A program made the position numbers and the translations under genes. This document shows positions 7,480 through 45,464 of a DNA stretch of 48,208 nt, piece by piece (within the stretch, counting starts at the first letter, position 1; every line of letters starts with the position of its first letter). The notes beneath the pieces were generated by a model. That model did no database searches and was not told the origin of the DNA. It was given only the letters and a program-made list of their open reading frames with translations. Source of the DNA: Candidatus Kaiserbacteria bacterium CG10_big_fil_rev_8_21_14_0_10_59_10 (GTDB taxonomy: Bacteria > Patescibacteriota > Minisyncoccia > Phycocordibacterales > UBA2100); the NCBI GenBank assembly GCA_002773285.1, contig PFBM01000014.1, forward strand, positions 1 through 48,208, in the 5' to 3' direction.

Positions 7480-7488
7480 TGTGGATAA
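7480..7488 (-). promoter_or_regulatory. Perfect DnaA-box consensus TTATCCACA
   Basis: TGTGGATAA on the + strand in a divergent intergenic region. A second copy lies at 7790-7798. Confidence 0.45.
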
Positions 7489-7789
7489 GTCGACGCAAAC
7501 AAAAAACTTTCTCGCGCGCGCAGTAAAAACATTTCATCCTATTTTCAAAATCAAAAATGTTTTTGCTCACAAACCTGAAATCTCTCAGTGTGCGAATGCA
7601 TCGCACCCCTTAGCGAGAACGCCGCGCTCGGAGAGTCGCGCGAAGTGTGGTTCATCCCACGAGCATTCTTCTACAAAGACACTGCGCCATGCGAGCGTGA
7701 TGCTTGATGAATGATTCGCGCGCATCTTGCACACAATGAATCGTACGTATCTTGCACACACTCATGCACATGGGAATTCCCCTAACCCC

Positions 7790-7798
7790 TGTGGATAA
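7790..7798 (-). promoter_or_regulatory. Perfect DnaA-box consensus abutting the left REP palindrome
   Basis: TGTGGATAA at 7790-7798. Confidence 0.45.
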
Positions 7799-7825
7799 AA
7801 CCCACGAGGTGACACCTCGTGGGTT
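7799..7825. repeat. REP-like palindrome, left of RAYT
   Basis: AACCCACGAGGTG-A-CACCTCGTGGGTT: 13-bp arms with a 1-nt centre. Confidence 0.9.
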
Positions 7826-7835
7826 AGGATGGGGT

Positions 7836-8507
7836 ATGGCTTACAGGCGCGTTCCCTTCCAAGTGGACGAGTGGTTCCATTGCTATAATCGCGGGATCGA
7901 CAAACGCACAGTGTTCGAATCAGAGGATGACTCTGAGAGATTTCTACAACTGCTGTATCTCGCAAATTCGGAGGAGAAACTACACCTTGCCGACATCTCT
8001 CTTACAACCGATGAGATTATGTGGCATGAGCGGGGCGCACCGCTTGTGTCAGTTGGTGCGTACTGTCTTATGCCAAACCACTTCCACCTAATGCTAAAGG
8101 AAATCCGCGAGAACGGCATTACCCAATTTATGCGAAAACTCGGGACTGCCTACACTATGTATTTTAACCTTCGGCATGAACGCACAGGCAACCTTTTTTT
8201 GAAACCGTTCCGTTCCCGACATGTCGACTCAGACAGGTACTTCCAGCACGTGGTCAATTACATACACTGCAATCCGGCCGAGAGAATCGACGCTGGTTGG
8301 AAGGAAGGTAGGATAAACAGTATGAACAGATTGGAGCGTGAATTGCGAGCATATCGCTATTCGAGTTTTCCTGACTACGTAGGTAACAGGCGACCGATAT
8401 CTGCGATTTTATCTGATGATGTCCGCGAGACGTATCGTCATGTTCCTGCTCGCAAAATGCTCAAAGAAGCGCACGCATACTACCGCGACCTAACCTTCGC
8501 ACTGTAG
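7836..8507 (+). mobile_element. REP-associated tyrosine transposase (RAYT, Y1 HUH family)
   Basis: Motifs FHCYNRG, AYCLMPNHFHL (HUH), YFNLRHERTGNLF, YIHCNP (catalytic Tyr) and YRYSSF. Flanked by identical palindromes. Start set at MAYRRVPF. Confidence 0.92.
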
Positions 8508-8540: not shown

Positions 8541-8565
8541 ACCCACGAGGTGACACCTCGTGGGT
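8541..8565. repeat. REP-like palindrome, right of RAYT
   Basis: ACCCACGAGGTG-A-CACCTCGTGGGT, identical to 7800-7824. Confidence 0.9.
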
Positions 8566-8609
8566 TTAGCATAATGTTGTAGGAAAAGAACCAAGAGTAT
8601 ACAGGTAAC

Positions 8610-38014: not shown

Positions 38015-39037
38015 TCAGGATAATCCTACAAATAGTCTTTCCATGAGCGTTCTCAAATTATTTTGCCTAACGAGCGTCTCTAGCGCGATACGCCAGTCGC
38101 GATGCTCCTCCTCGGTCACGGTAAGTGCCGCGGCGATCCTTTCCGCACAATCGTTCGGCTCGACGGTCTCCAGCACAAGCTCCCGGGGAACATGCTCGGC
38201 GAAATCACTGCTTGCAGCAAGGACGAGACAGCCGCAGGCGGCCGCTTCCAGAATGGACTTGTCGTACATGCCGGAGGGCGAGCAATTCACGTAGACTTTG
38301 TGCGCACTGAAGAGGTGCGGCGCTTCCGAGTGCGGAATGCCGTCTTGAAAGACCACACTCTCCGCAATGTCGAACACTCGCACTTTTTCTTTCAGACCGC
38401 CTATATATGTGCCCTCGCCGGGCCCGCAGAAGGTCGCAGCGAAATTAAAGCCCTTCGTTCGCAGAATGCCGAGTGCTTCCAATAACACCCCCGGCCGCTT
38501 TGACGGCGAGATCCGGCCGAAAAAAAGTACTGAGCGCGGTTCTCGAACAACGCCGGGCGCGGGCTTAAATATATCGGTGTCTACGCCCACCGGCATCAAG
38601 ACTGTCTTTTTGTATTTCGCCGTATAGGAATGTTTTGATGTACAAAATACTTTCGTGCAAAATGCGGCGGCAATATCCGTGAGAAACGTGCCGGCGTAAT
38701 GATTTCGCCACAGGTATACCCGTTTTCCCAAAAGCTGCCACAGCAACCCGCCAAGCAGAATATACTCTTGATTCATATGGACAAACACCGCGTCATATTC
38801 GTGACGGAATTTCCATGCGTAGTGATAGAAACGGATAACATACCTCACGCGTGATCTGCGCGTCTCTTTTCCGAGGGAGTGCACCGACACATTTTGCGGC
38901 AGAGAGTATTCTCCTTTTTTGAGGCAAACAACGTGAAGATGATCGTACTGTTTTGCAAACTCCTCTATCCACCGATGAAAAAACCCCAAAATAGGATCGT
39001 TCTTGTCGACTGCTTGAGTGATGATTAGGAGGCGCAT
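38015..39037 (-). CDS. Glycosyltransferase family 4
   Basis: DPILGFFHRWI, GRISPSK, DKSILEAAACG. Confidence 0.88.
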   Translation of the reverse strand: MRLLIITQAVDKNDPILGFFHRWIEEFAKQYDHLHVVCLKKGEYSLPQNVSVHSLGKETRRSRVRYVIRFYHYAWKFRHEYDAVFVHMNQEYILLGGLLWQLLGKRVYLWRNHYAGTFLTDIAAAFCTKVFCTSKHSYTAKYKKTVLMPVGVDTDIFKPAPGVVREPRSVLFFGRISPSKRPGVLLEALGILRTKGFNFAATFCGPGEGTYIGGLKEKVRVFDIAESVVFQDGIPHSEAPHLFSAHKVYVNCSPSGMYDKSILEAAACGCLVLAASSDFAEHVPRELVLETVEPNDCAERIAAALTVTEEEHRDWRIALETLVRQNNLRTLMERLFVGLS

Positions 39038-39915
39038 ATGTCCTCGGGGTTCTCACCGTACACTCCTTTGAGTAAATCAAGGTCTTTGCCACTCTTGGTA
39101 AGCAAGTCGACGTTTTTACACTCCATTGCGCGCAGGAACGACTGGCCACGAGCGTCATCCGAGAGTCTTCGGGCATAGAGCTCACTCAGCGCCGCCATGT
39201 CTTTTATAAAACAGTGGCCACCCGCTCCCCGACCCTGCTTCGCGCCCGGGTGCCCGCTTGCGTGCACCGGCTTTGCATACCTGTTGCACACGAGGGGATC
39301 GTTCCGGATGGCCTCCTCGATGGTATTCCAATCGCAGCCAAGAGATCGGGCTAGATCGTACATCATGTTGAAAAATACGATTTGGATATAGCCGCTCCCG
39401 TTGTGGGTGTATTTGATCAGCTCTGCCTCCGTGCTCGTACAGGTAAGCGAATACTGTGCCTTGGGCAACACCGAATGCACGAGCTCGGCGGCCGCCCTGT
39501 GCCGCTCGCTCTCCTCAGGCATACCGATGATGTTTGAAAAAGGATGCGCGGCATCCTCGGCAGCCGTCCTCTCGCTCAGGAACTCCGGCGAGTACAGTAT
39601 GGTGACAGTATTGTGCCTATTCTGCAGCTCAGCTGTAGTTCCCGGCAGAACGGTCGATTTAATAACAGCGATCTTTCCTTCCCCGACCAGCTGAAGAACA
39701 CTCTCAACGACGCTCAGGTCAAATTGACCAGATGTTGTTGGCGTCGGCACGGCGATTATCACTACATCGCATTCAGCTACCTTTGCTTTATTGCCATTGT
39801 ACGGCTCCTCCAGGGCGTAGCGCACTACCGCATAGCCGCGACGCTCAAAATCGTCGGCGTAGTTTTTTCCGATGTACCCCTGTCCTATAAACCCAACGAG
39901 CAGCTTGTTTGCCAT
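39025..39915 (-). CDS. UDP-glucose/GDP-mannose dehydrogenase family, short form
   Basis: GQGYIG, AVPTP, IKSTVLPGT, PEFL, AELIKY, GGHCFIKD. Confidence 0.88.
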   Translation of the reverse strand: MANKLLVGFIGQGYIGKNYADDFERRGYAVVRYALEEPYNGNKAKVAECDVVIIAVPTPTTSGQFDLSVVESVLQLVGEGKIAVIKSTVLPGTTAELQNRHNTVTILYSPEFLSERTAAEDAAHPFSNIIGMPEESERHRAAAELVHSVLPKAQYSLTCTSTEAELIKYTHNGSGYIQIVFFNMMYDLARSLGCDWNTIEEAIRNDPLVCNRYAKPVHASGHPGAKQGRGAGGHCFIKDMAALSELYARRLSDDARGQSFLRAMECKNVDLLTKSGKDLDLLKGVYGENPEDICAS

Positions 39916-40049
39916 AACGCAGCAGTATAGCCGTTTTCATCCCTCGGCGCACGCCCCCACACTAACCCGGCATAATTTCTACGCTGCATTGTAGCCCGCC
40001 ATAAAAAACGGTGGCGTTGTGGAAAAATTGCGTACGTGAATCTGAAAAA

Positions 40050-41129
40050 TCATACCGTGATGCCAGGGTTAGTGTGGAGGCACGCCCGTATGTCATCGCA
40101 ATATGCTTGCACATACTCATCAAGCGACGCGTACGGATACCGCTTGAGCTCGCCGCGGCACGGCCCTTCCTTGAGCCACTCGCGAAGCGCATCCACGAAC
40201 CCCTCCTCCGTCGTAACGATAGCGCCGGCCTCGCGGGCAACGCCAACGTCCGTGGAAAGCACCGGCGTGCCGGCAGCAAGCGCCTCTATGATGACGAGTC
40301 CATACCCTTCATAGTGCGATGTGACGAGCACAAGATCCGCCAGTTTGTAGTACGACGCCGGATCCCCCTCCCCCTCGAAGAATATTCGATCGTCGCATGC
40401 GCATTCCTTTGCAAAGGACTGCAGCAGCGATCGCTCACTTCCCTCGCCTACAATGATAAGGCACGCATCCCTTGGGGCTACCCGTGCGAAGGCGCTTACA
40501 GCAAGCTTCACGTTTTTCTCCGGCTCGAGGCGCGAAACGACGAGCAATTTCGTCTTGAACGCCGAGAATCGCGCCTTGAGTGCGGCATCCGACGGCGCGC
40601 TGCGATAGCGGGCGACATCAACGTATATCGGGAGAACGGCGGGTACGGCCCGCTGCCCATAGCCCGTAGCTTGCAGCGAGCGTGCGATACGCTCGCTCAC
40701 GACGCGGATACGGGTAGCACGAGCAAGAACATGGGGCATAACGAGAGTCCTGATACGGTTCAGAAAGGAGCGGCGAAATTGCGCCGCAAACGGGTCCGTA
40801 TGCAGTTGCACATGAAGCGGCTTGCCGCGGCGCGCAAGGAGACCGACTAATCCGGATTCGAACGGATCCTGGACGGTCACGACATCGGCTGGCAGGCGGC
40901 GCGCGATGCGCGCAGCGTCAAGAACATATAATGTTTTCAAACGTGAGTTGGTCGGATACAGGTGAAGAGGGCCTGCGTGCACTGTTGCAAGAGCATGCGA
41001 GCGCAACGAAAATACCACCACGTGCATTTCGCCGAATGTTTCCGCATAGCGCGCCGCGCGTACGCGTGCGGCGCTTCCTTCCCGAAACAATGCCCTATCG
41101 GAACCGATAGAAAGCACACGCATAGTCAT
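40050..41129 (-). CDS. Glycosyltransferase family 4
   Basis: QDPFESG, SRLEPEKN, SHYEGYGLVIIEA. Confidence 0.9.
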   Translation of the reverse strand: MTMRVLSIGSDRALFREGSAARVRAARYAETFGEMHVVVFSLRSHALATVHAGPLHLYPTNSRLKTLYVLDAARIARRLPADVVTVQDPFESGLVGLLARRGKPLHVQLHTDPFAAQFRRSFLNRIRTLVMPHVLARATRIRVVSERIARSLQATGYGQRAVPAVLPIYVDVARYRSAPSDAALKARFSAFKTKLLVVSRLEPEKNVKLAVSAFARVAPRDACLIIVGEGSERSLLQSFAKECACDDRIFFEGEGDPASYYKLADLVLVTSHYEGYGLVIIEALAAGTPVLSTDVGVAREAGAIVTTEEGFVDALREWLKEGPCRGELKRYPYASLDEYVQAYCDDIRACLHTNPGITV

Positions 41130-42130
41130 GTGCGCCTAAGCGCGGTGCATATTTCCCGTGCCATGTCTTCCCATGAGTGTTCGAAGGAGAACGCCCGGCA
41201 GGCGCCCTGCAGTTTTGCGTACACTCCCGGCTCGAGCATCCTCTCCACGGCACCCTCCAGTTCTTTCTCTGAGCGCATGTCGATGAATATCCCGCACTCG
41301 CCCAAGCGCTCCTTCGTGCCGGTGTCCCGCGCCATGATGAACGGTTTCCCGCGCGCCACCGCCTCTATCGCCGTATTCGAACATATCTCGCTGAAGGCCG
41401 GCAGTATGACGGCGTACGATCTCTCCAAGCGCTTCAGGTGCTCGGAATACGGAAGCGCGCGGGCATCGAGCGAAACGCCGCTGTGCTTTGCTGCTATGCG
41501 CGCGACCACTCGCTCGACCATGCCGGCATTCTTGAGGAACATATCTCTGCCCGCGCTCACGAACACAATTCCGTCGGGAGCGCGCTGAGCCGCCTTCGGC
41601 GGATAATAGTTTTCCAGTAGGTGTACTCGGGAATCGGAAAATTCATAGGCGTCCCGCCATACTTCCCGCTGGAAACGCGTCGTAAAGAAGAGGGCATCCG
41701 CGCCTCGCACGAGGGAGCGTATGCCGCGGAACGTACACCGTTCCCGTATCGTGAACCTCCTCTTCGCCGAATAAAACTCAGAGAGCAGTATCGGCTCTCT
41801 CGTCCGCTCCACATATATTTCCCACAAAAAATCTCCCCCGATGCGCACCGCGAAACGTTTCCTGCATAGGCGTGCAGCGACAAAAGCGGGAAAACCGACA
41901 CTCCATGTATCAAGCGCGAATACGACATCGCTTCGCAACACTCGTGGAATGATGCGTATCCCATACATAAGATGCCGCAACCCAGACGGAAGCATTCTCT
42001 CCAGTGCATTACGCTCGACAAGGTCGACCGTATGCCCTGCCGATTCAAGCCCGCCCGTAAGGCCCCGCGCGTAAACGCTTAGTGCTTCTATCGACCTATC
42101 CGTAAAGGGTGTCGCGACGAGGAACCTCAT
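41126..42130 (-). CDS. Glycosyltransferase family 4-like
   Basis: RIGGDFLWE, GRDMFLKN, SEICSNTAIEA. Start set at MRFLVATP. Confidence 0.82.
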   Translation of the reverse strand: MRFLVATPFTDRSIEALSVYARGLTGGLESAGHTVDLVERNALERMLPSGLRHLMYGIRIIPRVLRSDVVFALDTWSVGFPAFVAARLCRKRFAVRIGGDFLWEIYVERTREPILLSEFYSAKRRFTIRERCTFRGIRSLVRGADALFFTTRFQREVWRDAYEFSDSRVHLLENYYPPKAAQRAPDGIVFVSAGRDMFLKNAGMVERVVARIAAKHSGVSLDARALPYSEHLKRLERSYAVILPAFSEICSNTAIEAVARGKPFIMARDTGTKERLGECGIFIDMRSEKELEGAVERMLEPGVYAKLQGACRAFSFEHSWEDMAREICTALRRT

Positions 42131-42168
42131 TATTGAATACTCTAGCGCAGGGTGAAATGAATAGCGAG

Positions 42169-42190
42169 GAGGCGCCCGAAGGGGCGCCTC
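42169..42190 (-). terminator. GC-rich hairpin 3' of the small ORF (terminator or stabiliser; weak U-tract)
   Basis: GAGGCGCCC-GAAG-GGGCGCCTC, a perfect 9-bp stem. Confidence 0.5.
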
Positions 42191-42209
42191 AACACGTATG
42201 GCGTGGCGT

Positions 42210-42398
42210 TCACCGAAACGCCGCGTGGATAACTCGGTGGGACCCGTCAACATCCACGCTTTGGATCGCGCGCTCAGCGCGCGATGGCCCTTCGTGTACG
42301 ACGAGGCGATTAGGTAAGGTCATAGATCGCCAAACCGCGACCTGGAGACCAAGCATCGCCTCTATCCAACGCCAATAAGCAACCTGGAACTCCAACAT
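42210..42398 (-). CDS. Hypothetical 62-aa protein
   Basis: AAAGGAGG 7 nt before the ATG, an internal tandem repeat, and a downstream hairpin. Confidence 0.55.
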   Translation of the reverse strand: MLEFQVAYWRWIEAMLGLQVAVWRSMTLPNRLVVHEGPSRAERAIQSVDVDGSHRVIHAAFR

Positions 42399-42478
42399 GG
42401 AGGTTCCTCCTTTCTGTGCTTGCGGTTGCGCTGCCTTCAGCTAACACCCTTGCGACCGATTCTCCAAGGGCACTTATC

Positions 42479-42795
42479 CCCGCACACTTAACCTCCTATT
42501 GCAAACTAAAAGATAAGCGTTCCATCAGAAATCTTCTTGCGTTGCCCCGTAACTTCAGTGCCTTCTCTCGTCGCACGGCGTCACGTTCGTCTCTATACGC
42601 TTCGTAATAAAGCAGTGTAAAGGGGCGCCGAAAGGCCGTTGAGAAACTTTCTCCATTGTTGTGTTTTTTCAGTCTGCGCCTCAAATCATTCGTCCTGCCG
42701 ATATACAGTCGGGAGTCACGCTCGCTCCCAAGAACATAGACGTAATACATGGCACAAGTATGCGATTCGAGGCGATAGGAGGTTAAGTGTGCGGG
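42479..42795. mobile_element. 317-bp element with 21-bp perfect terminal inverted repeats and flanking TTATC direct repeats, encoding only a GIY-YIG nuclease
   Basis: CCCGCACACTTAACCTCCTAT (42479-42499) and ATAGGAGGTTAAGTGTGCGGG (42775-42795) are exact reverse complements. TTATC lies at 42474-42478 and 42796-42800. Confidence 0.75.
42496..42750 (-). CDS. Stand-alone GIY-YIG nuclease (84 aa)
   Basis: YYVYVL..S...LYIGRTNDLRRRLKKHN.G..ST..RP..L.YYEAY....DA..RE..LK. Confidence 0.93.
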   Translation of the reverse strand: MYYVYVLGSERDSRLYIGRTNDLRRRLKKHNNGESFSTAFRRPFTLLYYEAYRDERDAVRREKALKLRGNARRFLMERLSFSLQ

Positions 42796-44007
42796 TTATC
42801 CCCGCCCGAAAAGCGGCACGAACACCTTCTCGTGCATGTCTTTCGCAACGAGGTCCCAGTCGTATTTTTCGACGACCATTGCCTTCGCCGTAGCGACGAC
42901 TGCCCGCACTTTCTCCGGATGCGCCGTGATGTCTTTTACCGCTTCGGCTATCTGCTCCGGCGAATCCTTGTCTACCGCCCAGCCCGTCACGGGCTTGTCG
43001 GGGTCGCGTGTCTGGTCGAAAAGAAAGTCCGCAATGCCGCCCTCTTGCGTCGCAATGACGGGGAGGCCTGCGGCCATCGCCTCCACGAACGAATTCCCCA
43101 TTCCCTCCGAGCGGCTCGGGCGCGTAAAAATGTCGCACGCCTTGAGATACTTCGGCAATTCATCGTGCTCTATTTGCCCGAGAAATTGGACACGCTTTTG
43201 CAGCCCGTGGCTTGTAACCAACAACTTGAGCTCTTTTTCCAGAGGGCCGGTGCCGAGAATGATAAAGTGCACATTCTCCGATAGCAGGGGCAATGCGCGT
43301 ATCACGTCATCGAGCGCGTTTTTATGCACAAGGCGCGACGTGGTGATTATGAATACGTCCCCCATCTTTTTGCCGAGGCGGTCTTTTATCTCGTCTATCG
43401 CGCGCGCTGGATACTCTTGCGAAAAGTGCGCCACATTGACGGCATTCGGGACGAGGACGGGCTTACCGGGAAATCCACGCCTCTTCGCCCAACGTCCGAG
43501 GAAGGTGGAGATGGCCGACACCGCATCGGCCGACGTAAAGGCGCTCTTAAAGAGCGGCCAAAGCGGCAGCATCCTGCGCTCGATATACTCCGGGGGATCA
43601 CCCTCTTGGAGCTCAAGCACGTAGGACACGCGCGGATGGAAGAGCTTGAAAAGCGCCGCCGGCACGCCGCAGGAGTGCGCCATCATCGCCCATATGCAGT
43701 CATAGCGGTGCTTCCGGTGCAGCCGCAGGGCTTTCCACGCGGCGAGGAACTGGAAGAGCAGCTTATTGAGATGCAGCGGCCAGCGACGCAACTCTGCCAT
43801 AGAGGGGCTCGGCCGCGCGATACCAATGCGGTGGACGAGTACGTTGCCGATCTGCTCGACCGTCGGCAGGGTGGAATCGAAACGATTCGTCACCATGTGG
43901 AACTCTATGTCCGGCATTCTGTCGGTCTTTTCTTTTATCGCCACTTCCGCACCCCCGACATGCTTTGGGTAGTACGCGAGCGAGAAAATAAGTACTTTTC
44001 TTTTCAT
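42796..44007 (-). CDS. Glycosyltransferase family 4
   Basis: GGAEVA, TSRLVHKN, RPSRSEGMGNSFVEAMAAG. Confidence 0.92.
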   Translation of the reverse strand: MKRKVLIFSLAYYPKHVGGAEVAIKEKTDRMPDIEFHMVTNRFDSTLPTVEQIGNVLVHRIGIARPSPSMAELRRWPLHLNKLLFQFLAAWKALRLHRKHRYDCIWAMMAHSCGVPAALFKLFHPRVSYVLELQEGDPPEYIERRMLPLWPLFKSAFTSADAVSAISTFLGRWAKRRGFPGKPVLVPNAVNVAHFSQEYPARAIDEIKDRLGKKMGDVFIITTSRLVHKNALDDVIRALPLLSENVHFIILGTGPLEKELKLLVTSHGLQKRVQFLGQIEHDELPKYLKACDIFTRPSRSEGMGNSFVEAMAAGLPVIATQEGGIADFLFDQTRDPDKPVTGWAVDKDSPEQIAEAVKDITAHPEKVRAVVATAKAMVVEKYDWDLVAKDMHEKVFVPLFGRG

Positions 44008-45464
44008 TGCGTTTTGCCTTTGTGCAGCAAGACCTCAGCATACGCATACCGGAGCTGGTTGGCGAATGCGTCGCCCTCGCCCATGGAATGCCGCCTAAGC
44101 GCTCCGGCGGTTATGTCTCCCGCGCGGCGCTCTTGCGCGGCGCTCGTGCCATAGACCTGGTCCGCATCGGAGAGCACCGTCGCGATGAGGCCTCGCTTAA
44201 AGCGCGACACGTCGTCCAGGTCGTGATCCGCAAGCGTGATGAGAAGCGGCAGCCGCGCGTAGCGCTTAAGGAGGACCCCCGCGAGCGCGGCGTAGCTCGC
44301 AAGAAGCGACCATGCGAAGAGATAGCGATGCGCTCTGTGCAACCGGCGCGCTTTCCAGTAACCCAAAAGCGGGAGAAAGAACTTATCGAGCGCGCCGCCG
44401 AAGCCGACGCGGTGTATGTGCACATTGGGAGAGGGCGGCGCGATGCCGCGCGCGCTCGGCGTAAAGACGGTCGTGACAACGTCGAAGGTTACGTCCGGCA
44501 TCGCGCGCGCGAGCGCAAGAAGCGCCTCTTCGGCTAGGCCCACCGTCGGATAGAACGTCGTCGAGAACACGAGCACGCGCTTCTCGCGGGAAGCGCCGCG
44601 CGAGTGCGTCGACACGAATTCCGCTATGTATGCGTCAAGCGCGCGCTTCGGCTGCCAGCCGAGCGCGCGCGATTTCGCCGTATCCAGGCCGGAGCTCATG
44701 CGATTGCCGCCGCGCGCGGGAAGCATGATGATTTCTCCGCCGAAGAGCTCCGCCACCTCGCGTATCGAATAGGCGCGCTCCGCACCGAGCCCATACTCGT
44801 CCCCCTGCCCCCTTTCGCCGATGAGCAATAATCCGTCCACGATGTCGTCCACGTGCGTAAAATTCCTCGTCTGGGTGCCCGGCGCGGTAACTGCGATCGG
44901 CGCTCCGGCGAGGTACATCTGCTTGAACACTTCAATGACGGTACCGTAGAGGCCCGCCCGCTCCCCCGGCCCGTACACGTTGTAAAAATAGGCAATGGCG
45001 TACGGCAGACCGTGGCGCTCTCCACACTCATTCACGCGCTCCGTGTTCGCCGCCTTCGTCGATGCATATGGCGTACGCTCCCGCGCGAGCCCGCCGTCCC
45101 CGAATTTTGTGGACGAGCCGGCGTAGACCAATTTGCAGCCGCGTTTTTTCCAAAACTCAAGCACCGCCCCCGTGCCGACGACGTTCAGGTCGTGAACGGC
45201 ATCCGGCTCCAAAACACTTTGCTCCACGCGCGCATACTCTCCGAGATGGTAGATGATGCCCGGTGTCTCGGGAATGTGCTTTTCAATATCCTTCGTATGC
45301 CCCTCGCGATATTCAACGCCCGCGACATGGTTCGCGCGCGAGCCGGCAAAATAGTTGTCGAGCGATATCACCCGCTTTCCTTCTCCCGCAAGGCGCGCGC
45401 ACAGGCGTGCGCCGATAAACCCGGCCCCGCCCGTGACAACGATTATTTCTTCTCCTTTTTCCAT
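44004..45464 (-). CDS. NAD-dependent epimerase/dehydratase fused to a GT4 N-terminal-like domain
   Basis: VTGGAGFIG, YASTK, YNVYGP, TRNFTHV. The C-terminal part resembles the N-half of the next gene. Confidence 0.85.
   Translation of the reverse strand: MEKGEEIIVVTGGAGFIGARLCARLAGEGKRVISLDNYFAGSRANHVAGVEYREGHTKDIEKHIPETPGIIYHLGEYARVEQSVLEPDAVHDLNVVGTGAVLEFWKKRGCKLVYAGSSTKFGDGGLARERTPYASTKAANTERVNECGERHGLPYAIAYFYNVYGPGERAGLYGTVIEVFKQMYLAGAPIAVTAPGTQTRNFTHVDDIVDGLLLIGERGQGDEYGLGAERAYSIREVAELFGGEIIMLPARGGNRMSSGLDTAKSRALGWQPKRALDAYIAEFVSTHSRGASREKRVLVFSTTFYPTVGLAEEALLALARAMPDVTFDVVTTVFTPSARGIAPPSPNVHIHRVGFGGALDKFFLPLLGYWKARRLHRAHRYLFAWSLLASYAALAGVLLKRYARLPLLITLADHDLDDVSRFKRGLIATVLSDADQVYGTSAAQERRAGDITAGALRRHSMGEGDAFANQLRYAYAEVLLHKGKTQ

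Follow-up and report, generated by a model that had tools for sequence, protein, structure and literature searches.

Very small, probably mobile elements whose only gene encodes a stand-alone GIY-YIG nuclease

The window analysed here (the whole stretch of 48,208 nucleotides) contains a very short gene for a GIY-YIG nuclease set between inverted repeats and lying next to an intact glycosyltransferase gene, and the question raised by this locus is whether the gene and its repeats form a mobile element and, if they do, what moves it. Comparison with other genomes makes it very likely that this is one copy, intact here, of a family of very small mobile elements. The role of the nuclease in driving movement is inferred, and there are no binding, cleavage or mobility data to support it.

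The element and its nuclease gene

The element occupies 317 bp of the minus strand from tip to tip (42479–42795) and consists of an inverted repeat, a 45-nt leader, the GIY-YIG ORF and a second inverted repeat. A sequence-only reading of the locus had described exact 21-bp inverted repeats around an 84-aa GIY-YIG ORF with its stop codon in the left repeat, and this held: the 21-nt arms are exact at 42479–42499 (plus strand) and 42775–42795 (minus strand), and when extended reach 24 nt with one mismatch (42479–42502 and 42772–42795). In gene orientation the upstream arm reads CCCGCACACTTAACCTCCTATCGC on the minus strand, with the tip CCCGCACAC common to five relatives (L006, L007, L035, L036 and L038), and the downstream arm holds the last codons and the stop codon (42496–42498) of the ORF. 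These are the only two matches to the 21-nt arm in the window, with up to three mismatches allowed, and two or more matches were seen in none of 100 dinucleotide shuffles. When the element is folded as single-stranded DNA, the arms form its closing stem (z = -3.47). A chance origin of the arms was rejected on the basis of the shuffles, the genome-wide uniqueness of the 21-mer and the control intervals described below.

The element is flanked by two copies of the 10-bp direct repeat TTATCCCCGC (42474–42483 and 42796–42805), as had also been claimed. The last five nucleotides of the first of these are the arm tip, and in the second the TTA is the stop codon (42796–42798) of the GT4 glycosyltransferase gene (42796–44007, minus strand), which shares a strand with the element and is immediately upstream of it; the first 4–5 nt of this copy are the probable target duplication. 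The same reading took TTATC to be a 5-bp target duplication, which held only in part. As flanking repeats in the family are modally 4 nt long and that of the closest relative reads ATAA, the true duplication is likely to be (G)ATAA, including the GT4 stop codon, and the remaining CCCGC/GCGGG identity is then likely to reflect a target that resembles the element tip and not a duplication. The suggestion that the target mimics the element end (CCCGC) is supported by the family repeat lengths, and the claim that no gene is broken, with the right copy including the GT4 stop codon, also held, as the GT4 gene is intact. The element thus meets the general criterion for insertion sequences and DNA transposons of terminal inverted repeats with a flanking target duplication, although the duplication is modally 4 nt and variable.

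The stand-alone nuclease gene (42496–42750, minus strand) encodes a protein of 84 aa which matches Pfam PF01541 with 64 bits (cut-off 22.6; E = 1.6e-17) and so meets the criterion for the GIY-YIG superfamily; no other family was found in the Pfam search of this ORF except the related T5orf172 and MUG113. It has every residue that is invariant in the family (Y3, Y5, Y16, G18, R26, H30, E50, R61, E62 and K66). Across 34 family members a total of 14 columns are invariant, including the GIY-YIG Tyr/Tyr/Arg/His/Glu set, from which we infer, on sequence alone, strong purifying selection on the nuclease. A profile of the 34 members searched against the PDB found the UPF0213 proteins 1zg2 (1.4e-14) and 1ywl (1.3e-10) as best matches, with SLX1 chains next (7e-5 to 0.03) and I-TevI reaching just 0.046. 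As a minimal single domain nearer to UPF0213 and SLX1 than to UvrC or I-TevI, the protein meets the criterion for the prokaryotic stand-alone Slx1-like/UPF0213 group (Dunin-Horkawicz 2006, PMC1564403). The element encodes no transposase of a known class (DDE, HUH-Y1, serine, tyrosine or DEDD), and the GIY-YIG domain is its sole ORF.

Related elements, gene-less copies and empty sites

Inverted repeats with a score of 11 or more were found at 36 of the 52 distinct homologue loci of the genus compared with 2/520 control intervals of the same length, and at 48/77 homologue loci in other species (controls, 4/462); the threshold was missed at 16/52 and 29/77 loci, respectively. The other-species hosts belong to many Patescibacteria classes, with Cloacimonadota, Stahlbacteria and Gammaproteobacteria MAGs in addition. 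The genus loci split by identity to the query, with inverted repeats at 36/42 loci of at least 45% identity and at 0/10 below 45%, and because these low-identity homologues, which carry the classical ..GAKYT.. motif, have no inverted repeats, we regard the element nucleases as a distinct sub-clade. The geometry is repeated at the 36/52 and 48/77 loci, with one arm 5–45 nt before the start codon and the other overlapping the stop codon, and the GIY-YIG gene is the sole gene found between the arms (84 loci from many genomes). Arm sequences vary among lineages, with CCC(G/C)..CACAC tips common to them. The direct repeats vary in length (3–5 nt, 7–10 nt, and up to 17 nt in L004, a paralogue in the same genome), which is unlike the product of a fixed staggered cut and counts against the explanation we prefer. 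It should be noted that the automated repeat lengths include many zeros where the scored arm stops short of the true tip at an interrupted repeat, and for this reason we relied on cases which reach the tip and on the printed flanks.

The same tips also bound copies without a gene. One lies in the window at 39953–40081 (129 bp), with 16-nt arms (GCCCCCACACTAACCC, one mismatch) which form the closing stem in the single-stranded DNA fold (z = -3.68) and with CACG on both flanks; a GT gene (40050–41129, minus strand) ends within it and takes its last codons and stop codon from the element. The genome holding the window has two ORF-bearing and two gene-less copies in all, and in related genomes the gene-less derivatives are 40–140 bp long with flanking repeats mostly of 4 nt. 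Relative G109, the richest in copies, has 74 tips (1 in the control). Pairing these by eye gave 36 inverted pairs, of which 30 measure 131–139 bp, two 183 and 201 bp, one 40 bp and three 302–303 bp. Two gene-less copies (L085 and L091) show 100% identity along their 133 bp but differ in their flanks. These copies, including that at 39953–40081, meet the criteria for MITEs in being shorter than 300 bp, non-coding and multi-copy, with inverted repeats, a duplication, and ends which match those of a longer element.

The sequence-only reading had accepted that it would be refuted if the inverted repeat proved to be a dispersed REP or the end of a known DDE insertion sequence. The exact 21-mer occurs just twice in the entire 759,674-bp genome and does not qualify as the former; the tip family is dispersed as miniatures (the two in this genome and the 36 pairs in G109), but this dispersal is MITE- or REPIN-like and therefore supports mobility rather than refuting it. 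The end of a larger insertion sequence was rejected, as no pair in G109 (n = 36) exceeds 303 bp and no longer element with such tips was found there, and of the two DDE families for which five genomes were scanned, DDE_Tnp_1 occurs in none and rve in one. We note that the genomes are metagenome bins, from which a kilobase-sized multi-copy insertion sequence may be missing in the assembly.

Related elements sit at unrelated sites. The elements L008, L043 and L045 are 85–88% identical in DNA with unrelated flanks, and the closest relative of the window element (L105, 74% identity) has the same geometry and the ATAA repeat at a different locus. The host loci are empty in relatives at rnc (5/5), hpf (5/5) and glmS (4/4), and also at the GT4 locus, where orthologues of 70–75% identity in 13 relatives all lack the element downstream; no GIY-YIG match was found near the orthologue at any of the 13 loci, 12 of which have at least 1182 nt of downstream sequence. 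The orthologues end in ..GATAA in 5/13 relatives too, and GGGGATAAGTGCCC would be the empty-site sequence here. The 41 close genomes carry between 0 and 7 copies each. The second general criterion for insertion sequences and DNA transposons, which demands that non-homologous sites hold related copies and that relatives show empty sites, is thus met, and mobility of the family is very likely and well supported by comparison. This case rests on comparisons of assembled sequences only, with no read-level or biochemical evidence behind it: the stretch, found in no RNA run, lies on a single contig of one DNA run, probably its source, where no joint crosses the element and no junction occurs, and as contigs cannot reveal rare variants this result speaks neither for nor against. 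The expectations that homologues would carry GTG(C/G)GGG-type inverted repeats with variable short direct repeats in their flanks, and that relatives would show empty sites, were both borne out (the latter at the GT4 locus and three others), and the overall interpretation as a mobile element is supported, with every check that was run coming out in its favour.

One alternative places the function of the arms in RNA. On this view the arms would base-pair once transcribed, which would either hold down translation of a toxic free-standing homing endonuclease or create an RNase III site, and the gene would spread by homing to one homologous site only. In its favour, one arm falls in the 5' leader and the other spans the stop codon, the elements are co-oriented with host genes, and copies within a 16S rRNA gene would need a stem that is excisable or tolerated. 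Against it, gene-less copies retain the arms and flanking repeats and multiply (30 pairs of 131–139 bp in G109, two of them identical), and related elements are found at unrelated sites, a pattern which homing does not yield. There is no clear excess of G-U-compatible mismatches between the arms on the sense strand (7 G/T vs 4 A/C of 22), although this sample is too small for a test of RNA against DNA pairing, and the region has no Rfam match. This reading is already disfavoured, and we consider it highly improbable. An intron or known RNA at the locus was likewise rejected, since an Rfam search of 39000–45000 with E up to 1 gave no match, and the criterion for a homing endonuclease (one cognate site, self-splicing intron) is not met as related copies lie at different host genes.

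Known systems and candidates for the moving enzyme

The closest known system is Ssn/NTS, described in 2025, for which an IS-like architecture around a small GIY-YIG nuclease has already been noted (PMC11893778). In both Ssn/NTS and the present family the gene for a small single-domain GIY-YIG protein lies between inverted-repeat sequences, which are also scattered elsewhere in the genome. The Ssn nucleases bind single-stranded DNA hairpins flanking their own genes and cut beside them, and the authors liken NTS-ssnA-NTS to an insertion sequence (Chenal et al. 2025, PMC11893778). However, Ssn genes are flanked by complete short hairpins (NTS/SRM and CGTC-tagged REP, with 7–9-bp stems and a CGTC tag; PMC11893778), whereas in the present family they are replaced by the two halves of one long stem (12–25 nt), so that the gene sits in the loop; membership of cd10448 is not established. 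The published SRM motif is not enriched in the genome (6 occurrences vs 0–5 across five simulated sequences) and is absent from C18 and C14, which hold the GIY-YIG genes, and we therefore rejected a match to the Ssn criterion of flanking SRM hairpins. Target duplications, empty sites, same-ended miniatures and start-codon insertion are not reported for Ssn in the relevant sections of PMC11893778. The statement in the sequence-only reading that no bacterial IS family is known to be driven by a GIY-YIG nuclease holds within the literature we searched, in which we found no description of GIY-YIG-bearing elements with terminal inverted repeats or of their MITEs; this search did not cover the Ssn homologue lists of PMC11893778 (Supplementary Data 3–5).

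Other systems share individual features with the family. In REP/REPIN systems with RAYTs and in TIR-flanked TIRYTs a nuclease gene is similarly bracketed by repeats thought to be moved by it (Di Nocera et al. 2013, PMC3733652), and gene-less hairpin-forming copies, or REPIN-like doublets, replicate within genomes (Bertels and Rainey 2011, PMC3116915). Whereas RAYTs act as Y1 HUH transposases through covalent intermediates, the enzyme encoded in the present family is a GIY-YIG nuclease, which acts by hydrolysis. A RAYT gene is as a rule present in one copy and passed on vertically; the present elements are instead multi-copy at varying sites. The IS200/IS605 elements are also very small, with secondary structure at the ends, a target that resembles the element end and orientation-biased insertion (partly PMC11893778). 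They move by single-strand 'peel and paste' using subterminal hairpins and a Y1 transposase, and unlike the present family they have neither terminal inverted repeats nor target duplications. The criterion shared by IS200/IS605 and REP/RAYT, an element-encoded Y1 HUH transposase, is not met here, as the Y1 genes are elsewhere and near other hairpins. Bacterial MITEs (Correia and other IS-derived elements; PMC10969869) resemble the 130–140-bp gene-less copies in having inverted repeats, short duplications and tens of copies, and both insert beside or into gene ends. The bacterial MITEs known so far derive from DDE insertion sequences whose ends they match, whereas the only longer partner of the gene-less copies is the 300-bp GIY-YIG element. 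Finally, selfish GIY-YIG nuclease genes between or within host genes are also known as homing endonucleases (I-TevI and the Seg proteins of phages) and as ORFs in insertions of CPR rRNA genes (Tsurumaki et al. 2024, PMC11270868). Homing, however, targets a single cognate site without leaving inverted repeats or duplications behind (the text of PMC11270868 does not use the term 'inverted repeat'), and homing endonucleases carry extra DNA-binding domains where the present protein is a bare 84-aa domain.

The explanation towards which we lean, by a modest margin, is that these are miniature mobile elements of about 300 bp with 12–25-nt repeats and a lone gene for an Slx1/UPF0213/Ssn-like nuclease of 80–90 aa, which would also move their gene-less derivatives in trans. 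We infer that both arms snap back in single-stranded DNA to give one stem with the gene as its loop, and that the nuclease would recognise the stem or its tip and, by analogy with the related Ssn nucleases, nick at the stem base. It may also cut genomic sites which resemble the element end plus target (GCGGGGATAA here and TGTGGATAA elsewhere). Excision and insertion would then be completed by host repair or ligation, which we invoke because the joining of DNA is beyond a hydrolytic GIY-YIG enzyme, and gene-less derivatives of 40–140 bp with the same tips would be mobilised in trans. The insertion step has no demonstrated enzyme, and that a GIY-YIG nuclease has no known joining activity counts against this explanation.

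The main rival, which we consider unlikely, is that of a passenger cassette, in which the arms and the gene-less copies are moved in trans by a RAYT- or IS200-like Y1 HUH transposase, or by an unassembled DDE insertion sequence, with the GIY-YIG gene as cargo serving addiction, defence or repair. Matches to Y1_Tnp (PF01797) were found in 5/5 genomes tested, with 15 in G109 (which has the 36 paired elements) and three in the genome holding the window, one of them inside the window, and Y1 transposases are the established enzymes for the hairpin repeats of REP and REPIN (PMC3116915, PMC3333891). GIY-YIG enzymes have no joining activity, and some genomes hold gene-less copies for which the elements compared include no matching ORF-bearing copy (G071 and G107, where the gene-less copies have CCCGCACACTAA tips). 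Against this, each of the three Y1 genes of the genome has differing hairpins within 700 nt, none with CCC(G/C)CACAC tips, and the copy in the window is bracketed on both sides by its own palindrome (7798–7824 and 8541–8567). No Y1 match in G109 lies inside or adjoining a tip pair and no pair exceeds 303 bp; cargo is normally variable, yet GIY-YIG is the sole gene between the arms at the 84 loci; and of the two DDE families scanned, only rve was found, in a single genome of five. The choice originally posed, between an autonomous element driven by its nuclease and a cassette moved in trans, is undecided, with RAYT-like Y1 transposases in 5/5 of the genomes tested.

A further rival, very unlikely in our view, is a domesticated nuclease with its repeat family, comparable to Ssn/NTS or RAYT/REP, which serves the host, for example by restraining the recombination of single-stranded DNA that enters the cell; its repeats would spread slowly and the gene would not be a selfish transposon. 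The Ssn nucleases of Neisseria modulate transformation via NTS repeats and domestication of NTS-ssnA-NTS has been proposed (PMC11893778), and the strong purifying selection inferred for the present nuclease is in keeping with this. Against it are the range in copy number from 0 to 7 among the 41 close genomes, the loci which differ between genomes with empty sites in relatives, and the insertions inside a 16S rRNA gene and abutting tRNA genes. The genome holding the window has just four elements, and so there is no repeat network for such a host function.

Insertion at gene boundaries and wider implications

The comparison shows that the elements are co-oriented with host genes and that their position very often coincides exactly with a start codon. 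In 41/79 elements an ORF of 50 or more codons, opening with ATG, begins between -3 and +30 nt from the arm end, and 9/37 elements lack a start codon themselves and are read in frame from a flanking ATG. The host ATG is duplicated, so that just a few nucleotides separate the nuclease stop codon from the restart of the host gene. Other insertions lie inside a 16S rRNA gene or abut tRNA genes, and L013 and L050 are GIY-YIG insertions in rRNA genes.

A bolder version of the preferred explanation would make these the smallest autonomous cellular transposable elements known (about 300 bp) and a new class, with a bare GIY-YIG 'transposase' of 80–90 residues that works on the snap-back stem which the element's ends form in single-stranded DNA, joining by host enzymes, a start-codon preference with ATG duplication and translational coupling, and MITE- or REP-like progeny; it would explain non-intron CPR rRNA GIY-YIG insertions and make the elements still-mobile relatives of Ssn/NTS. 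As a joint claim we would not wager on it in either direction. If the nuclease does drive transposition, the family would bring a new catalytic class to prokaryotic transposition and lower the minimum size of an autonomous element. The pairing of enzyme and ends across many lineages with different arms would offer a natural specificity panel for single-stranded-DNA nucleases, and such panels for single-stranded-DNA tools have been proposed in the Ssn work (PMC11893778). The family would also account for several small 'GIY-YIG family' genes in tiny CPR genomes, for GIY-YIG genes within rRNA genes and beside tRNA genes, and for short repeats which end or begin host genes, such as that at 40050–40081, and start-codon duplication with translational coupling would allow an element to be tolerated inside tight operons without harm.

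Two minor observations were also made. An insertion at an RNase P gene (L022), read from the sequence, was only partly borne out by a sub-threshold Rfam match of 48.5 bits (gathering score 100; E = 3e-13) at 1813–2295, about 70 nt downstream of the ORF stop codon. The site TGTGGATAA, which we tentatively take to be a DnaA-box consensus, occurs 10 times in the genome compared with 1–5 times in simulated sequences.

An armed GIY-YIG gene in a glycosyltransferase operon

The element at 42479-42795 (-) is 317 bp long and is bounded by inverted-repeat arms which, on sequence comparison, are exact over 21 nt (42479-42499 and 42775-42795; 24 nt if one mismatch is accepted) and flanked by the 10-nt direct repeat TTATCCCCGC (42474-42483 and 42796-42805). 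The sole ORF between the arms encodes an 84-aa GIY-YIG protein (42496-42750 (-); Pfam GIY-YIG, E=1.6e-17) whose stop codon lies within an arm, and the direct repeat includes the stop codon of the GT4 glycosyltransferase gene directly upstream on the same strand (42796-44007 (-)). The arms, direct repeats and ORF had all been described in a sequence-only reading, and this observation is confirmed. When up to three mismatches were allowed, the window matched the 21-nt arm at the two arms only (two matches were found in 0/100 shuffles), and the 759,674-bp genome held no other match; the count of arm copies suggested in that reading therefore finds the arm to be unique to this element, with two gene-less members of the wider family present in the genome.

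Across 34 family members the nuclease has 14 invariant columns, amongst them the catalytic Tyr, Tyr, Arg, His and Glu, and in several lineages its C-terminal residues are encoded by the right arm. A family profile search matched the UPF0213 structures 1zg2 and 1ywl first and SLX1 next, and NCBIfam gave no specific match for the protein.

Two neighbouring ORFs were also noted. Downstream of the element, a 62-aa ORF (42210-42398 (-)) sits behind a GGAGG site, and GT4 orthologues at two fetched loci (L060 and L068) are followed by a similarly placed ORF with a ..LGLQ.. string in common; this is possibly a conserved small operon gene. A single 486-aa ORF (44004-45464 (-)) encodes two domains: residues 8-224 match an NAD-dependent epimerase/dehydratase and residues 313-449 a glycosyltransferase-4-like N-terminal domain.

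The elements have moved between loci

Comparison of loci shows that the elements have moved. At L008, L045 and L043, from three genomes, the element DNA is 85-88% identical with flank similarity at background only, and each element lies at the start codon of a different gene; we take these genes to be those of RNase III, a hibernation factor and another protein (N-termini read by eye). The sequence-only reading had also proposed looking for empty sites in relatives, and these were found: the rnc, hpf and glmS loci, each occupied in one genome, hold no element in the other genomes compared (5/5, 5/5 and 4/4, respectively), and the window's own site lacks the element in 13 fetched GT4 orthologue loci (70-75% identity, with at least 1182 nt of downstream sequence in 12/13). 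No GIY-YIG match (best E 0.53) or tip-like motif (the tip being the outer arm end) was found downstream of these 13 orthologues, five of which end in ..GATAA as the window GT4 does, and the window sequence minus the element and one repeat is colinear with the GATAA-ending orthologues. No relative found anywhere is closer than L105 (74% identity), which shares the window element's geometry (arm at -45, arm end +16), carries an ATAA repeat and is sited in AT-rich non-coding DNA.

Gene-less derivatives are also present. The tip CCCSCACACTAA occurs 55 times in G109, the genome of one relative, vs 0 in the control, and 20, 17, 15 and 11 times in four further genomes. With one mismatch allowed, the 74 tips in G109 form 36 inverted pairs plus two singles (pairing by eye): 30 are 131-139 bp long, two measure 183 and 201 bp, one is a bare hairpin of 40 bp, and three reach 302-303 bp, two of these being ORF-bearing copies; none of the 36 exceeds 303 bp. 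The 19 gene-less examples we fetched have 16-25-nt arms around an interior that bears no relation to the ORF, and their flanking repeats are mostly of 4 nt and variable in sequence (CATA, CATG, TATG, CAAG, CTTG, CGCAA); two gene-less copies (L085 and L091, 133 bp) are 100% identical at different sites. Bare hairpins of ~30 nt (CCCCCACACCTTT..AAAGGTGTGGGG) with (T)CATA flanks are also nested in the leaders of two ORF-bearing copies, L167 and L175. An RNA-level role alone for the arms is disfavoured, as it leaves the multiplying gene-less copies unexplained.

The two gene-less elements in the window's own genome are at C5:11726-11863 on another contig (138 bp, 21-nt arms with one mismatch, CCCG on both flanks) and at 39953-40081 in the window (129 bp, 16-nt arms, CACG flanks), where the GT gene at 40050-41129 (-) takes its final codons, stop codon included, from the right arm. 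The left arm of the former holds the end of the upstream gene's reading frame, and the latter shares a glycosyltransferase operon with the GIY-YIG copy, 2.4 kb away.

Distribution and insertion sites

A second GIY-YIG copy in the same genome (C14:2273-2524, 57% protein identity) lies within an element (L004, C14:2229-2560) with its own 22-nt arms, different in sequence and equivalent in position to those of the window element. Homologues occur in 34/41 close genomes at 0 to 7 copies per genome, and in 40 of the 116 genomes of the genus at E<=1e-18 (top identity 69%). A domesticated, host-serving nuclease with repeats is a poor fit to such variable copy number and position.

Each locus was scored by the best ungapped inverted repeat pairing the 100 nt around the ORF start with the 100 nt around the stop, with same-length intervals placed randomly in the same loci as genus controls. 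The flanks of homologues, a check the sequence-only reading had proposed, reached the threshold score of >=11 in 36/52 distinct genus loci vs 2/520 control intervals, with all 36 amongst the 42 loci of >=45% identity to the query and 0/10 below this. A wider scan of one genome per species of bacteria and archaea gave 521 relatives, and of the best 80, 48/77 scorable loci reached >=11 vs 4/462 controls. Hosts include many Patescibacteria classes and MAGs labelled Cloacimonadota, Stahlbacteria, Clostridia, Methylobacter and Gammaproteobacteria (mis-binning of small contigs is possible). Arm sequence varies by lineage, most starting CCC(G/C) and many continuing ..CACAC. As the low-identity armless homologues carry the classical UPF0213 '..GAKYT..' motif, the armed elements form a separate sub-clade.

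Elements have the orientation of the genes beside them. Several lineages have (T)ATG as the flanking repeat, its downstream copy serving as a housekeeping gene's start codon, and 41/79 armed elements have an ATG-initiated ORF of >=50 codons starting -3 to +30 nt from the arm end. In 9/37 cases the nuclease ORF lacks its own start and is in-frame from the upstream flanking ATG, the host start codon behind the host ribosome-binding site; we infer that translational coupling would re-initiate the host gene.

RNA genes are also targets. Elements with ATGCCACACCTC arms lie within the 16S rRNA gene 5' region on the same strand in two genomes (L013 in G033 and L050 in G048, from two GTDB families of one order); Tsurumaki et al. 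2024 (PMC11270868) report CPR rRNA insertions with GIY-YIG ORFs that are not introns. L040, L044 and L056 abut the tRNA-Ala 5' end, and their 7-9-nt repeat is the first bases of the tRNA. L056 (G115:C9, 1501-2072) consists of two identical GIY-YIG units of 302 bp arranged in tandem; GGCCAGTAG, with which the neighbouring tRNA-Ala starts, stands ahead of both units, and the array might reflect unequal exchange or reinsertion into a duplicated target. TGTGGATAA boxes adjoin L105, L124, L167, L171, L172 and L174, and at these six loci, the window element (GCGGGGATAA) and L004 (17-nt repeat) the target resembles the element end plus the duplication, and therefore repeat length is not fixed.

Three further loci deserve mention. 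At L004 the outer 13 nt of the left arm recur after the right arm, giving the 17-nt direct repeat and a perfect hairpin, which could be an end-mimicking target or the junction of two abutting elements. At L022 (G009:C78) a sub-threshold match to RNase P RNA (48.5 bits, E=3e-13) lies ~70 nt downstream of the element and GGAGGAAAGTCCGGAC comes directly after the right arm; the element may interrupt the 5' part of that gene. At L016 (G039:C4, about 1430-1830) the GIY-YIG ORF lacks long arms and closely precedes tRNA-Tyr(GTA); two stretches of the tRNA 5' part, the first ~15 nt and another ~12 nt, are duplicated ahead of the ORF.

A putative nuclease-driven mechanism and its rivals

Amongst characterised enzymes, the Ssn nucleases come nearest: these small GIY-YIG proteins cut single-stranded DNA just upstream of a hairpin to which they bind, and their own genes are flanked by those hairpins (PMC11893778). 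When each window element is folded as a DNA single strand, its arms pair as the closing stem (z = -3.47 for the GIY-YIG copy and -3.68 for 39953-40081). From these two observations we infer a mechanism in which the nuclease would recognise the snap-back stem or its tip, nick at the stem base and at look-alike targets, and leave joining to host functions; this last step is purely inferred and is the weakest link, because GIY-YIG enzymes only hydrolyse. The proposal of a mobile element is supported for mobility, and the GIY-YIG nuclease is probably the driver, although this is not demonstrated, with binding, cleavage and joining all inferred.

We regard the window family as a variant of the Ssn-type nuclease-plus-repeat systems described by Chenal et al. 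2025, who remark that NTS-ssnA-NTS is IS-like (PMC11893778). Di Nocera et al. 2013 (PMC3733652) describe CGTC-tagged repeats without a dedicated transposase and RAYT-like genes with long flanking inverted repeats. The literature we searched (full text, supplements excluded) held no description of split-stem elements that show target duplications, empty sites, MITE offspring or insertion at start codons, and it is possible, at slightly less than even odds, that they form a new class of transposable element.

Mobilisation by DDE-family transposases was considered, but DDE_Tnp_1 was found in 0/5 genomes tested and rve in 1/5. Mobilisation in trans by Y1 (RAYT-like) transposases is not excluded: these occur in 5/5 genomes tested (15 in G109 and three in the window's own genome), but no Y1 gene of the latter is associated with CCC(G/C)CACAC tips. 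The RAYT-like Y1_Tnp gene at 7752-8507 (+) (PF01797 match 8046-8267) is bracketed by two 27-nt perfect palindromes (ACCCACGAGGTG A CACCTCGTGGGT; 7798-7824 and 8541-8567), with which it forms a separate REPtron-like unit, and the genome's two other Y1 genes have different hairpins nearby. TGTGGATAA boxes were also seen at 7480 and 7790, the latter immediately next to the hairpin.
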